Source of the DNA: Chloroflexota bacterium
Lineage (GTDB): Bacteria > Chloroflexota > UBA11872 > VXOZ01
Direction of reading: 5' to 3'
Length of the DNA: 64,000 nucleotides
NCBI GenBank assembly: GCA_965207135.1
Contig: OZ242272.1
Location: 2,750,544-2,814,543 of the forward strand
The notes under the pieces are model-generated. The model searched no databases. It saw only the letters and a program-made list of their open reading frames with translations, and had not been told where the DNA came from. This document shows positions 1 through 32,836 of this stretch, piece after piece; the stretch's first letter is position 1, and each line of letters begins with the position of its first letter. Made by a program: the position numbers and the translations under genes.

Positions 1-252
1 CGCGAGCAATCGCCCCAGGTACCTTTCCGCCGCGTGAGCAGGCACGCCGCACATGGGCATCTTCTGACTCTTGCCGAACTCTCGCGCCGTCAGCACGATC
101 TGCAGAGTTTCAGAAGCTACCTTGGCATCGTCGCCAAAAAGCTCGTAGAAGTCGCCGAGGCGAAAGAAGAGCAGCGCATCGGGGTAGTTCTGCTTAATGC
201 GATAGTACTGCTCTTGTATCGGCGTCAGACGCCGTGGGGAAGACGTAGGCAT
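1..252 (-). CDS. mutS: DNA mismatch repair protein MutS, N-terminal part (runs off the left edge)
   Basis: Manual minus-strand translation [47 protein letters not shown]...[10 protein letters not shown] contains the MutS domain I FRxGDFYE motif. Not in the ORF track. Confidence 0.95.
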
Positions 253-27265: not shown

Positions 27266-27358
27266 GACAGAGCTCCGTGCGAGGTGAAGGCTGCGCACGT
27301 TATCATTTGTTCAGACGATCACAAGCGGTTGTCAGATTTAGTCATGAGGGCCAATGTA

Positions 27359-28408
27359 GTGTCATCAGCAGTTAAGTTGACCAGCCTCGCCGCTTGCGCA
27401 GGCTGAGCGGGAAAACTCGGCCCCGCCGAGCTCGCGCAGGTACTGCGCGCCTTCCCTTCACAAGCGAATAGCAATCTACTGGTGGGCTTAACCGCGCCGG
27501 ATGACGCCGCCGTCTACCGCATGAGCGACGAGCAGGCCATCATCAGTACGGCGGACTTTTTTCCTCCCGTAGTCGACGATCCGTATGCCTACGGGCAGAT
27601 TGCCGCCGCCAACGCGTTGAGCGACGTCTACGCCATGGGGGGCGAGCCGCTCTTTGCCCTGAATCTCGCGGGCTTTCCCGATGACCTCGACCTGGACATC
27701 CTCAGCCGCATTTTTCAGGGCGGCGCCGAAAAGGTGATCGAAGCGGGCGCCGTCATTGCCGGCGGACATACGGTGACTGATGAGGAGCCAAAATACGGCT
27801 TAGCCGTAACCGGCCAGGTGCATCCCGATCGCATCTTTACCAAGGCCGGTGCGCAACCGCGCGACCTGCTGGTGCTCACGAAACCCATCGGCACGGGCGT
27901 CATTACCACGGCCCACAAACGCGATTGCGTCGAACCCGCGCATCTCGATGAGGCCGTTGCCAGCATGTGCCGTCTCAATGGCTCTGCCGCACGGCTATTC
28001 CAACAGTGGACCATCCATGCCTGCACCGACGTGACCGGCTACGGCTTGCTCGGCCACGCGATGGAGATGGCGCGCCACGGCAACGTGCGCTTTGAAATCG
28101 CCGCCGCTGCTGTTCCGCTGCTGAGCGGCGCGCTGGGATACTCCCAGGATGACGTGGTGCCCGGCGGTCTCGACCGCAACCGCGCGCATCTGCTGGACGA
28201 GGGGTTGCTTACGCTCGACCAGAACATTCCTCCTGCCCTCGCCGCACTCCTCTTCGACCCCCAAACCAGCGGCGGCCTACTCGCAGCCGTGCCTCCTCGG
28301 GAACTAGCCCAGCTTGAAGAAGCCTTCCGTACCGCCAACGAGCCCTATTGGATCCTCGGCTCGGTGAGCGAGGGGGTCGGAATTACGGTGACATCCAAGC
28401 GAAGCTAG
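27359..28408 (+). CDS. selD: selenide, water dikinase SelD (selenoprotein; UGA-Sec at 27404-27406)
   Basis: KLTSLAACAG-U-AGKLGPAEL is in frame with DDAAVY, ADFFPPVVDDP, NALSDVYAMGG, TDVTGYGLLGH and DPQTSGGLL. The ORF track splits it at the UGA. Confidence 0.93.
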
Positions 28409-28443
28409 TTCTCGCCAACCCATTCTACTTAGACATCGAGTGG

Positions 28444-29096
28444 CTATTGTATTGGTTCAATTAACACTTGAGACTTGACATAGTCAACTTCACTTTGGTG
28501 GCATTGCTTGTATTTCTTGCCACTTCCACAAGGGCAAGGATCATTTCTCCTTGGATTCGTCATTGCAATTCGAAATATTTCATCCGTATGTTCTCTCAAA
28601 CCCTCGTCTCCGTGAGTGTACTCGCCCCAAAGGTCTTTTTTGCAGCCTCAATGCCGTATGCATCTGTAAAGGACAATCTGTAGAGAAACGGAATTAGCAG
28701 GTCTTGTAACAATTGCTCAATTGTCAGGTTAGGCTCAGTACCAAAGTTTATCCCCATGCAACACTGACCATCAGAGTAAAAGTGTAGGTCGATGGGTTTC
28801 ACTCTCTCCTTTTTCGCAACCTTTAGGAATCGACCGCCGGTCTCACGTACCTTGGGCCATCCGTTGGCATCAATCGAATCTAGCTCAACTTGTATCGAGT
28901 AGGTGTCGCAAAGAAAGTGGGGGCGGCCCCTGTTCAAGGTATCATCACCCATCCAAACTTTCCCTGAGCAACTTTCGTAGGCAGCGTGAAATGTGAGTTC
29001 GCCTTCAATCTTGTCGCTAGAGGGATTTAAGCGCAGGCCAGGATATTCTCGTGCGAGCCAATCAGTGTCGGAGCCGGAAAGCCTCATACGCCTCAA
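28444..29096 (-). CDS. CBASS-associated E2-like protein with C-terminal SEC-C motif, split by a -1 frameshift at A_AAA_AAG (28635-28641)
   Basis: Frame 0: [32 protein letters not shown], ending at 28596. The -1 frame reads [30 protein letters not shown] to TAG at 28444. Confidence 0.75.
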
Positions 29097-29118
29097 GTGC
29101 TTCCTTGTCTAACCAGTC

Positions 29119-30090
29119 TTAGAGGGACCAGCCGTGTCTACCGTATGGCCTTCTTGGTGTAACTGCTACGGACGATGCAGCAGTTCTCACGGTCGTTCTG
29201 ACTTTACTACCCACGCCAAAACTCTCACCGAACAACTGGCGCCACAGCTTTAGGCTCTCTTGCGGATCTTCCTCCTCGTAGGCTTGGCAGATCAATTCAG
29301 TGTAGCGATTGAACTTATCTCTAAAGTTAAGGTACTTGGTCTCATCCCAGTGACGAGTAAAGTTTTCTTGCGGCAAAACTGGATTCGAAATCGTAGGTAT
29401 CGTAGGCCACGATTGCAGAAAGCCGTTGATGCGCCTGCTTACAGTCATCAAGGTGTCTGGAACCGTCTTAAAGTTTGAATCGTCATCCGAATCATAGATT
29501 GCGTTCCCAATCAACGTCGTCAACAGGATTGAAGGCGCGGTAAATGTTTGCTTGTAGTCCCTGAGGTACTTCATGAGCCTAGTCACGCGCTTGAGGTTTC
29601 CGTTCGTGACCCGATTTTTTTCATTGAACCAGTCTCGGAAGCCGGTCCCGTCGGTGATTTCGAACTCATCCGTTAGTCTGTTGCAGATGTATTGGTTGGT
29701 TCCATAGGCTACACTCGGGACAATATCCAGATGAAACTCGCCTGCGTAGTCGACTACGACACACCTCGTCTTTCTTCGAATCTTGTCGGCATATACACTA
29801 CTATTCTTCAGGCATTGGTATACCGCATCGACATAGTCCCGGGGCGATTTGGAACCATCAAACTTCATGAATAACAGCAGATCAGCGTCGTATTCGTGAC
29901 CATTGACCGGCCTAATAATGGTACGAAGGGCGTAGGATCCCTGACGTTCAACTTTCACGTACCTATCTAGATTTTGGCTGAGAAATTCAGATACTGCTGC
30001 AACGCTCGTGTTCAGTCGGTCAAGCCGCGTCTGATTGATATTTACATGATCAGCGATGAATCTGTTGAAATCCTCGGTTCTCTTTGCCAT
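29119..30090 (-). CDS. cGAS/DncV-like nucleotidyltransferase (CD-NTase, SMODS domain)
   Basis: QGSYALRTII..EYDADL..FHLDIVP catalytic motifs; VTRLMKYLRD; TAATG overlap with the upstream patatin gene. Confidence 0.9.
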   Translation of the reverse strand: MAKRTEDFNRFIADHVNINQTRLDRLNTSVAAVSEFLSQNLDRYVKVERQGSYALRTIIRPVNGHEYDADLLLFMKFDGSKSPRDYVDAVYQCLKNSSVYADKIRRKTRCVVVDYAGEFHLDIVPSVAYGTNQYICNRLTDEFEITDGTGFRDWFNEKNRVTNGNLKRVTRLMKYLRDYKQTFTAPSILLTTLIGNAIYDSDDDSNFKTVPDTLMTVSRRINGFLQSWPTIPTISNPVLPQENFTRHWDETKYLNFRDKFNRYTELICQAYEEEDPQESLKLWRQLFGESFGVGSKVRTTVRTAASSVAVTPRRPYGRHGWSL

Positions 30091-31001
30091 TACTTTCTCC
30101 TTATGCATTCCCTTAATTGCCTACTATTGTATGTAAAGTCCTTCGAAGCCAAGGACTTCAAGGTGTCCAAGTGGTCAACATCGTCTAGGCCCCACGCCTC
30201 AATATCGGGATTCAGCCGAATGTACCTTTCCCCAAGTAGCAATTTGGATATGTTCGTCGAGGCCTGAGATTGTAAACCAAAAACATACGAGACTAGCTTC
30301 AGATGGCCCCATCCTGTCAGAAAGCCCCAGTTCTTGCTACGACCAAAGAAGCTAGTGGATTGGCCTGTACCGATGGACAAGATGCATACTTGATCAATCG
30401 ACCGCCCAAACTTAGATACTGCTTCTACTAGGGCGACTATTGACGGGTTATTGGCCCACAAACCACCGTCTACAAGGAGATAGTTTTCAACGATCATAGG
30501 ATCGAAGAACAAAGGAGCGGCGCAGGACGCCAAGATGGCATCGCTCAATTGGACATCTCCATCTCGGTCGTACGGCTCTCCCAGTTCGTCCACGTACCGG
30601 GACTTGAAAACGTGGACGCCGCCTGTTGAAACATCGGAACTTGGTATCAAGAGAGGCGTTGATATTTCTCTGAGGCTTACGTCTGGTACAGCGCTTCGCA
30701 CTAGCCGAACGAGCGGTTCGCCTCCATACTTGCTTCTAATGAGAGGCCAGCGGAATGGTCTTCGCTGAAATACTTGAGCTGACTTCCGCTCGAAGAGCCT
30801 TACGATCTTCTCCATTTCGATGCCCACTGCAGCCGCGCCCGCTATGATCGCGCCCGTGCTTGTTCCAGAAATGAGATTGAAGCACTCCCGAACTTGAACT
30901 CCAAGAGTTTCTTCCATCTCGGCGAGAACTTGGGCAGCATAGATTCCCCTGCTACCACCACCGTCCAATGCCAGAATATAAAATAAGTTGTCGCTATCCA
31001 T
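30090..31001 (-). CDS. capV: patatin-like phospholipase, CBASS effector (CapV-like)
   Basis: LDGGGSRG, GTSTG nucleophile, ASCAAP, DGGLWANNP and SIGTG; adjacent to the CD-NTase. Confidence 0.88.
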   Translation of the reverse strand: MDSDNLFYILALDGGGSRGIYAAQVLAEMEETLGVQVRECFNLISGTSTGAIIAGAAAVGIEMEKIVRLFERKSAQVFQRRPFRWPLIRSKYGGEPLVRLVRSAVPDVSLREISTPLLIPSSDVSTGGVHVFKSRYVDELGEPYDRDGDVQLSDAILASCAAPLFFDPMIVENYLLVDGGLWANNPSIVALVEAVSKFGRSIDQVCILSIGTGQSTSFFGRSKNWGFLTGWGHLKLVSYVFGLQSQASTNISKLLLGERYIRLNPDIEAWGLDDVDHLDTLKSLASKDFTYNSRQLRECIRRK

Positions 31002-31160
31002 TCTCATTCCAGTCTGATCTGCTCCAATTTAGCTCATTTCTTGGCCTGCCCAGTACCCCTTTGGGAACATTGCTAAAACCTTGCGGAGTGGAATGTCAAC
31101 AGTTTGATGCACGGAGAATTCGGCCCTGTCAACCAAGTACTTGCCTCACTTCTATGCGGT

Positions 31161-31211
31161 TTGACGCCTTGCGCCATTTCCACTAGCATCACTAGTGAGA
31201 AAACGTTTCAC
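31161..31211 (+). promoter_or_regulatory. sigma70 promoter and operator-like inverted repeat in the CBASS/capH divergent region
   Basis: TTGACG-N17-TAGCAT (31161-31189), then imperfect palindrome GTGAGAAAACGTTTCAC (31195-31211). Confidence 0.55.
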
Positions 31212-31290
31212 ATTCGATGCAATTAGGGTAACACATCGGGTGTTTCTAGTGCAAGACTTTTTTGCACCTTTCTTACGGGGGAAAGGCACA

Positions 31291-31635
31291 ATGGCTAACG
31301 TCAGTCTAAAGAACCTCGGTACAGCCGTCCGTGAGAAGAGAGGGGGTTACGGCCTCCGAGAAACTGCTGCCAAGATTGGCATTAGTGCACCAACACTATC
31401 TAGGATTGAGTCTGGAAAAATGCCCGATCTCCACACCTTTGGCAAACTATGTCGCTGGCTTGAAATCAATCCAGCGTCAGTGCTAGAGGTCCCACCACAA
31501 CCACCAAGTGCAATGCAATTGAACTCAGCCGCTGCTCATCTCAAGGCAAATCGTGAAATAGATCCAGATACTGCAAAGGCGTTAGCCAAGGCGATTGTTC
31601 GAGCACAGCAGTTTCTTGGCGAAGTGTCAGGGTGA
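31291..31635 (+). CDS. capH: XRE-family HTH transcriptional regulator (CapH-like)
   Basis: GLRETAAKIGISAPTLSRIESGKMPD..KLCRWL; C-terminal AHLKA..ALAKAI; divergent from CBASS. Confidence 0.82.
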   Translation: MANVSLKNLGTAVREKRGGYGLRETAAKIGISAPTLSRIESGKMPDLHTFGKLCRWLEINPASVLEVPPQPPSAMQLNSAAAHLKANREIDPDTAKALAKAIVRAQQFLGEVSG

Positions 31636-31639
31636 CACG

Positions 31640-32200
31640 ATGGAAAGGGGATTCAAATCTCGATGCGAAGAAATATCCCGCTCTTTGCGAGTTGAATTTG
31701 GGCTGAGGTCAGTTGATCCACTCTCCGCTGAGAAACTCGCAAATCATCTTGGCGTGCTGGTTTTGTCACTGTCTGATTTAGATCTCCCGCACGAAGATTA
31801 CCGCCAACTGACCATAATTGATGCAGGCTCATGGTCTGCCATCACCGTGTCTGCGTTTGGGCGGGATGCGATCATTGTCAACCCTAGCCATCGTGGAGGA
31901 CGCTACTCAAGTGACCTGATGCACGAACTCGCCCATCTCATTCTTGGTCACACGCCGAACACAGTGTTCTTCGTAGGTGACGGAGAACTTGCACTTAGGG
32001 GATACAGTCCCACAGCGGAAGAAGAAGCCAATTGGCTTTCGGCCACTCTGCTACTTCCCAGGGATGCACTTGAACACATAAAGCGTTGCCGGACATCAAG
32101 TCAGGTAGCTTGCGAAGAATACGGCGTAAGCCAACAAATGCTGAAGTTTCGATCTGACGTAACTGGCGTGACACGCCAATTCAACCGTAGAAATGCTTGA
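31640..32200 (+). CDS. capP: ImmA/IrrE-family metallopeptidase (CapP-like)
   Basis: HELAH zinc motif and EEEANWLSATLLLP; follows the HTH gene. Confidence 0.85.
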   Translation: MERGFKSRCEEISRSLRVEFGLRSVDPLSAEKLANHLGVLVLSLSDLDLPHEDYRQLTIIDAGSWSAITVSAFGRDAIIVNPSHRGGRYSSDLMHELAHLILGHTPNTVFFVGDGELALRGYSPTAEEEANWLSATLLLPRDALEHIKRCRTSSQVACEEYGVSQQMLKFRSDVTGVTRQFNRRNA

Positions 32201-32227: not shown

Positions 32228-32836
32228 CTAGCTCCGAAGCAGTTTCCACTCGTTCCGCCATACGACCAGATCGGTGTTGATCCTACCGTCCGGCTCCTGG
32301 GTGCGGGCGTGGCAGGTGAAGCCGTTCTTTTGAAAGGCGCGCTGGCTGCGGTGGTTATCCGCCATGACGGGAGCGAAGATGGCGTCAGCCTTCGCCACGT
32401 TGAAACCAAATGCGACGAGCAACCCAATCGCCTCGGTGCCGTAGCCGCGGCCCCACAGTTCTCTCTCGCCGATCATCAGATCAATGCGGCGCAGGTCTAG
32501 ATCGGGATACTGCGCGACGATCCGCTGCAGATTCATGCGCTGCAGCCAGCACTCGCCGATGGGACTTTCCTCTACCTCCATGATGAAACAGTAGGCATGC
32601 GTTGAAATCCAGCGGTAGATGAGTTGCAGTTCCTCCAGCGTGCTCTCTGTGAATTCGTTGTGGTCGGCCATTTCCATGACGTCAGGGTCGTTATTCCACT
32701 TGAGGAGCACGTCCCAATCATCTTCATTCATTGAACGCAAAGTGACCATAGCGCCACGCAGCGTGACGTCATGGCTCAGGAGGGCCGTGGTACGGCGTTC
32801 AGGGGTGGGCTGAAGTTCCGGGACGACAGTATTCAT
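32228..32836 (-). CDS. GNAT (RimJ/RimL-like) N-acetyltransferase
   Basis: IGERELWGRGYGTEA and NHRSQRAFQKNGF. Confidence 0.88.
   Translation of the reverse strand: MNTVVPELQPTPERRTTALLSHDVTLRGAMVTLRSMNEDDWDVLLKWNNDPDVMEMADHNEFTESTLEELQLIYRWISTHAYCFIMEVEESPIGECWLQRMNLQRIVAQYPDLDLRRIDLMIGERELWGRGYGTEAIGLLVAFGFNVAKADAIFAPVMADNHRSQRAFQKNGFTCHARTQEPDGRINTDLVVWRNEWKLLRS

Follow-up and report, generated by a model that had tools for sequence, protein, structure and literature searches.

Does the A_AAA_AAG heptamer at which the E2-like gene of a Chloroflexota CBASS operon changes its reading frame mark a programmed −1 frameshift, a base missed by the assembly or a base lost by the gene itself? The operon lies in the 64,000-nucleotide stretch of contig OZ242272.1 analyzed here (hereafter the window), and its components and divergent neighbors are the following:

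30090–31007, minus strand: patatin-like phospholipase, the CBASS effector, 305 aa, intact ORF (Pfam Patatin, E 2.1e-34; PADLOC 'Effector, Phospholipase' PDLC00758, E 9.2e-79, residues 7–301 on profile positions 4–318 of 331)
29119–30108, minus strand: CD-NTase (cGAS/DncV-like cyclase), 329 aa, with the C-terminus ...PRRPYGRHGWSL directly before the stop (Pfam SMODS, E 5.5e-30; PADLOC Cyclase PDLC00793, E 8.8e-116)
28596–29096, minus strand: E2-like gene, frame-0 part, with the E2 core and its DLH and CC-x-G motifs (PADLOC E2); 166 codons from TTG at 29096, or 163 from ATG at 29087
28635–28641, minus strand: A_AAA_AAG heptamer at the frame break, the site with one base missing relative to the homologs
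28444–28635, minus strand: −1-frame continuation of the E2, with DLWGEY-T-HG, a helix and SEC-C; 63 codons and TAG (Pfam/PADLOC)
31195–31635, plus strand: HTH (XRE-type) regulator, CapH-like (Pfam HTH_3, E 2.4e-09)
31595–32200, plus strand: IrrE/ImmA-type metallopeptidase, CapP-like, with HELAHLILGH (Pfam Peptidase_M78, E 1.9e-11)
32228–32836, minus strand: GNAT acetyltransferase, after the CapH/CapP-like pair

By its domain content, the locus is an E2-type (type II-short) CBASS system, comprising a patatin effector, a CD-NTase, an E2 and CapH/CapP-like regulators. At the sequence level, it has the cyclase, the effector gene and the lone E2-like protein with a conserved His and catalytic Cys that define the class, and none of the five neighboring ORFs scanned, the neighbors being the HTH, M78, GNAT and SelD genes, gave a match to ThiF or JAB, as might betray E1 or JAB partners. 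Where it departs from the class is the E2 frame, which is not intact up to the C-terminal His loop: the invariant His of that loop sits in the −1 frame. We place the operon among the E2-CBASS systems on these predicted features, with its E2 gene interrupted as recorded. The HTH and M78 genes overlap each other and are both divergent from the CBASS genes, as they are in the CapH/CapP-regulated CBASS systems presented in the accessible part of 10.1101/2022.04.27.489752; the likeness is one of domain content and position.

The Serratia marcescens E2-CBASS (SmCdnG and SmE2; PDB 8HSB), as described in the accessible text of 10.1101/2022.05.25.493364 and PMC12948482, likewise pairs a CD-NTase gene with a solitary E2-like gene downstream and lacks E1 and JAB, and SmE2 has in common with the window's family the His...Cys core and an additional conserved His some 50 residues beyond the Cys. 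The two systems differ in their effectors, a patatin phospholipase in the window versus a 2TM-SAVED protein in Serratia, and in the cyclase tail, which is PY[A/G] in the window's family versus the terminal Gly described for SmCdnG. They differ also in the E2 itself: in the window's family the His loop is followed by another helix and a SEC-C motif, whereas the 18-kDa SmE2 ends at the loop, and the gene is broken in the window only.

The selD gene (selenide, water dikinase, with AIRS and AIRS_C domains) occupies 27305–28408 on the plus strand. Its ORF is listed only from 27482, and the frame extends upstream through a TGA at 27404–27406. Read as Sec, this codon falls in ...LAACAGUAGKLGPAEL..., the usual SelD active-site context, and the genome carries a tRNA-SeC(tca); SelD is here probably a selenoprotein.

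At the E2 break, the minus strand reads GAG GCT GCA AAA AAG ACC TTT GGG. The A6 run occupies 28641–28636, and the heptamer that it begins (28641–28635) stands in the slippery phase relative to frame 0. Past the heptamer, frame 0 continues for 12 out-of-frame residues to a TGA at 28598–28596, the 13th codon, and the −1 frame is open from the GAC at 28635–28633 for 63 codons up to the TAG at 28446–28444. On the upstream side, a TGA at 28650–28648 shuts the −1 frame, so that a compensating shift is possible only within 28647–28599. An earlier, sequence-only reading of this DNA had reported the heptamer, its phase, the stop 13 codons on and the terminal TAG at 28444, and rereading the sequence bore out every one of these coordinates.

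The heptamer by itself is no more than chance would supply. Genome-wide, AAAAAAG occurs 37 times in stop-to-stop ORFs of at least 200 codons, distributed 15/10/12 over the three phases with 12 in the slippery phase, and in E. coli A_AAA_AAG is present in 68 genes according to the accessible text of PMC9307594—a commonness that counts against taking its occurrence here as a mark of programmed frameshifting. The non-random part is that the two frames are the halves of one conserved protein. Both pieces match the same PADLOC E2 profiles and do so collinearly, so the two frames are halves of a single E2 protein. On PDLC00872, frame-0 residues 14–147 fall on profile positions 11–123 (E 4.2e-12) and −1 residues 28–54 on positions 168–194 of 216; on PDLC00865, the frame-0 piece covers 46–128 and −1 residues 7–56 cover 136–198 of 219; and on PDLC00871, the frame-0 piece at 48–129 is followed by the −1 piece at 133–195 of 241. 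These matches of both pieces uphold the earlier identification of the gene as a CBASS E2.

The call of a SEC-C motif in the −1 frame was likewise correct: Pfam SEC-C (PF02810) matches this piece with an E of 8.4e-12 (45.2 bits versus a cut-off of 20.4), its Cys/Cys/Cys/His ligands are intact, and the SEC-C of a homolog can be aligned to C-terminal peptides of SecA from the PDB. This tail, a predicted zinc motif, belongs to the normal protein in this E2 family. H105 and C113 of the E2 core are invariant in our alignment A2, and the invariant columns of a 30-sequence alignment comprise the His of DLH, the second Cys of CC-x-G, the His of LWGEY-x-HG and two of the SEC-C cysteines. Papers whose full text mentions both SEC-C and CBASS appear to deal with lactococcal systems or anti-CRISPR and not with this E2, and in none of the main texts covered did we find a discussion of the SEC-C tail or the C-terminal part of this large E2 sub-family.

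How the family is built elsewhere bears directly on the nature of the break. A word-index protein search recovered two proteins only, the window's own and P0006 (213 aa, 46% identical), which contains ...YGVDAARNDLWGEYSHGDEG...CPCGSGRKYKRCH in a single chain. Relative to P0006, a −1 shift in the window yields a gap-free join to the family's normal C-terminus. An exhaustive search of representatives returned 234 relatives at E 0.001 or better; none exceeds 48% identity, and a near-identical strain with an in-frame allele was not found among them. Scans of genomes and metagenomes furnished 27 related loci, which the removal of six exact duplicates reduced to 21 distinct ones. The E2 core, the LWxEY-type motif and SEC-C share one stop-to-stop frame in 20 of these 21, and A_AAA_AAG is in phase at the site in none of them. 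Continuous homologs with no conserved slippery site are what the sequence-only reading had itself associated with an error or a recent inactivating mutation rather than with recoding.

The position of the missing base emerges from the comparison with individual loci. G001, a genome of the same genus, encodes at the same site adjoining selD a 557-aa fused protein that we used as a tblastn query. Its match to the window is spread over three frames (residues 1–323, 319–485 and 483–540), with identities of 74% in the cyclase, 60% in the E2 core and 62% in the tail. In all the other loci save one, L035, the E2 part is a single HSP. The DNA alignment of the window with G001 has just one 1-nt gap, which falls right on the A-run (alignment column 668). 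In the loci L021 and L022, the corresponding sequence is GCT GCC AAA AAA GAC CTT TGG GGC GAG TAC in one frame, against which the window aligns as GCT GC- AAA AAA GAC CTT TGG GGC GAG TAC. Together, these alignments indicate that the window is without one base, in or beside the Lys-Lys A-run.

Other members of the family are disrupted too, at other places. L035 (2495–3040, plus strand), from another Dehalococcoidia MAG, has its E2 copy in three frames and a SEC-C without the last ligands (CPCDGGRMYKRWP). It is broken at two places other than the window's site and is thus a true pseudogene, a case of natural erosion of the E2 gene. P0014 (205 aa, near the G032 clade) is, by eye, out of frame after ...HGLAAAR, about 2 codons from the window's break, and its SEC-C region is read through in the wrong frame. 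Out-of-frame tails at differing positions were seen by eye in at least five of the 27 homologs fetched (P0014, P0023, P0039, P0047 and P0070), a pattern more in keeping with errors or decay at scattered points than with a single conserved site.

The explanation that we favor, and regard as likely, is a real and recent 1-nt deletion in the E2 gene. An ancestral GCN AAA AAA GAC (A-K-K-D) would have lost one base inside or next to its two lysine codons. The loss would have split a continuous protein of ~215–230 aa, with the E2 core, the LWGEY-x-HG loop and SEC-C, leaving the frame-0 ORF of 166 codons and, in the −1 frame, a tail cut off from it. The loss of 1 nt at a Lys-Lys A-run automatically creates both an in-phase A_AAA_AAG and a restoring −1 frame; hence, the heptamer has no independent weight. 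The deletion would be recent, since no stop interrupts the orphaned tail and its conservation matches that of the core (62% versus 60% identity to G001). Two observations pull the other way. The open and conserved 63-codon tail after the heptamer also fits a recoding site or a miscalled base, and P0014, from a different clade, loses its frame (by eye) no more than about two codons from the same position.

The main product of a gene so deleted would be a truncated E2 that retains the catalytic His/Cys core and has lost both the invariant His loop and the zinc motif. The sequence-only reading had spoken of isoforms with and without the zinc motif. The loss of SEC-C stands, yet it understates the change, as the break also removes the nearly invariant LWGEY-x-HG segment, whose invariant His falls after it in the window. 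What this segment might do is suggested by SmE2. According to the accessible text of 10.1101/2022.05.25.493364, C101 and H87 of SmE2 are catalytic and the active site lies under a C-terminal loop of residues 150–160; phage defence is lost in the H152A and delta-K151-R162 mutants, and deletion of the loop raises poly-cGASylation in vitro.

The link of the window's family to SmE2 is structural. An AlphaFold model of the E2 part of G001 (pLDDT 89.8), compared with the PDB by VIA-align wide, has SmE2 as its best match (8hsb_B), with a middling Z of 7.4 and an rmsd of 5.5 over 136 residues, model 1..177 lying on chain 6..160. With Foldseek, the same model met nothing in the PDB beyond weak UFC1/UBC matches, of which the best had an E of 7.5e-3. 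At the sequence level, neither phmmer with the G001 E2 part nor the A2 profile connected the family to SmE2, and only SecA/YchJ SEC-C peptides were matched. The Cys-to-His spacing is 49 residues in the G001 homolog (C119 to H168) versus 51 in SmE2 (C101 to H152). Going by this spacing and the aligned ranges, the LWGEY-x-HG segment is probably the counterpart of the SmE2 active-site loop with H152. The frame-0 product would accordingly be akin to an E2 with its loop deleted, which goes beyond the mere loss of a zinc motif, and by analogy with SmE2 delta-K151-R162 and H152A, this CBASS system probably works poorly or not at all. Spontaneous slippage could still yield some full-length E2.

Among the alternatives to a real deletion, the one that fares best is an assembly or base-calling error, in which the DNA would have one more base (A7, or GCN followed by A6) and an intact E2-SEC-C gene; we consider it unlikely. 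The break does lie inside a homopolymer, the commonest place for indel errors, and the 2-contig, 3.56-Mb assembly suggests long reads. The tail is fully open and conserved, and the restoration of one base yields exactly the peptide of L021 and L022. Set against this, a run of 6–7 A is short for a consensus error, and the A6 site is covered in the Logan contigs of three runs (two samples of one study) with no differences and no gaps. These data are contigs of unrecorded library type, and contigs drop minority variants. Runs X1 and X2, moreover, are from the same sample, yield contigs of equal length and may be the assembly's own source, so no more than two independent read sets, both of the same study, agree on A6; a systematic miscall of the homopolymer would recur in all three runs.

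The rest of the genome also speaks against an error. In the syntenic comparison with G001, which spans 28.8 kb of the window, the CBASS ORF is the only one of the 86 G001 ORFs matching the window that is split between frames. We further looked genome-wide for a frame-switch signature, defined as a long ORF that ends just past a homopolymer where another frame opens. It is seen at 65 of 1448 runs of six or more (4.5%) versus 3.3% of control positions. At A/T runs of at least six, it occurs at 19 of 608, no excess over the 3.3% of the controls. The excess sits in sense-strand G6 (31/373 versus 11/373 for C6), and on account of this strand asymmetry we attribute it to sequence resembling ribosome-binding sites, probably G-rich spacers at gene junctions, rather than to errors.

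Of the 18 other A/T sites with the signature, 13 were checked against Pfam, the remainder being sites where both ORFs are short (C1:618274, 957050, 983560, 3188178 and 2766507). None of the 13 is a split family, and one, L049, is ambiguous. This locus (G000:C1:62089–63091, minus strand) matches a DNA methylase (N6_N4_Mtase) over profile positions 1–109 of 221 and ends past an A6 at C1:62375; the +1-frame ORF that follows is without a Pfam match. It may be a second gene interrupted at an A-run. Overall, A/T runs do not seem to be a weak point of this assembly, which favors a real deletion. The sequence-only reading had itself listed a plain deletion or a homopolymer error as no less possible than its preferred frameshift, and of these the deletion is the reading favored here.

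A real indel could also be tolerated or even useful, with leaky compensation through ribosomal or transcriptional slippage, an A6/A7 switch or reversion in a sub-population supplying a little full-length E2 and so lowering or gating the activity of a costly abortive-infection system. We judge this improbable. Defence genes are common targets of on-off variation, the effector, cyclase and regulators of the operon are intact, and the tail is undecayed, all of which would suit such a scheme. A 'savior' indel with low-level compensatory frameshifting is moreover established for other genes (accessible text of PMC5009743). The tract, on the other side, is only A6 and is of a single length in the contigs of the three runs, in which minority lengths would be hidden. 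A run of 6–7 A is short for efficient phase variation or for slippage by RNA polymerase, a tRNA-Lys(CUU) should lower ribosomal slippage, and nothing sets such compensation apart from a simple recent null mutation. If anything less probable is the specific version in which the deletion is tolerated because the A_AAA_AAG that it created slips, and a mixture of mostly loop-less E2 with a trickle of the full-length protein resets the firing threshold of the system.

Programmed −1 frameshifting as in dnaX and IS3, kept by selection so that short E2 and long E2-SEC-C are produced at a fixed ratio, is highly improbable and fails every test bar the heptamer itself. The likeness to dnaX and IS3 consists in the same heptamer in the same phase, with a frame-0 stop 13 codons on and a −1 shift that would give a longer, meaningful product with the family's C-terminus. 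The shifted product is the shorter one in dnaX, in contrast to the full-length one here. There is no downstream stem-loop: the 90 nt 3' of the heptamer fold at −14.8 kcal/mol (z = −0.01), as well as which 87 of 200 shuffles fold, and no hairpin or pseudoknot signal is apparent. No inverted repeats occur in 28540–28700, and an Rfam scan of 28300–29300 gave no frameshift element, its sole row being a sub-threshold snoRNA (E 0.33). That no strong 3' stimulatory hairpin is visible had already been remarked from the sequence, and the fold z-score, the repeat search and Rfam now agree on it.

On the upstream side, the spacing between the SD-like element and the heptamer is ~10 nt in dnaX; the sole SD-like element here, a GAGG, ends 4 nt ahead of the heptamer, nearer than suits such a role. 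A_AAA_AAG is, in the accessible text of PMC5009743, the most shift-prone heptamer tested in E. coli, and its shiftiness there is ascribed to a sole tRNA-Lys that pairs weakly with AAG; Thermus, by contrast, has two Lys tRNAs. By ARAGORN, the window's genome encodes both tRNA-Lys(UUU) and tRNA-Lys(CUU), so that this host, unlike the dnaX/IS3 cases, has a dedicated reader of AAG. The site differs from those cases also in being unconserved among the homologs. The short product, being without the invariant His loop, is an implausible second isoform. The proposal that a programmed shift yields two E2 isoforms is thus left unsupported by site conservation, by any 3' stimulator or by the tRNA complement.

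Returning to the deleted gene and its relatives, the E2 of this family occurs in two layouts. In 7 distinct loci, including G001 and G032, the cyclase, E2 and SEC-C are joined in one ORF of 546–603 codons, and 13 distinct loci have two genes, as does the window. Fused ORFs are seen in L004 (1465–3138, minus strand) and L005 (1456–3120, minus strand), and also in L011, L018, L028, L029 and L031; a P-[RS]-[KR]-P-Y-A motif is conserved at their junction. The homologs keep P-R-[KR]-P-Y-[AG] as a cyclase tail motif, and in the nine two-gene relatives matched by a search with it, the cyclase stops right after the motif (PRKPYAR and then the stop). The PYA junction motif looks like a processing or conjugation site, with Ala in place of the Gly of the Serratia cyclase. 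CD-NTase-E2 fusions are already noted in the literature (accessible text of PMC12948482, citing its reference 9). G001 and six further loci are fused in the same manner, and the window has two genes instead. Its cyclase-E2 linker has a 2-nt gap relative to G001, which may be an old natural fission or a second lesion.

At present, the finding is mainly a matter of annotation: the two ORFs at 28444–29096 make up a single E2 gene, interrupted, in a CBASS class that is already catalogued. It also carries a caution, in that a deletion in a Lys-Lys A-run always mimics the classic dnaX signal. If the break is real and partly compensated, the gene would be a natural hypomorph affecting the C-terminal loop and SEC-C tail of the E2, and if the slippage of the created heptamer did prove to be what makes the deletion tolerable, a bacterial immune gene would provide a case of a 'savior indel with compensatory frameshifting'. 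In the wider family, the CD-NTase-E2-SEC-C fusions of the relatives offer natural test cases for self-processing by the E2 at the PYA site.
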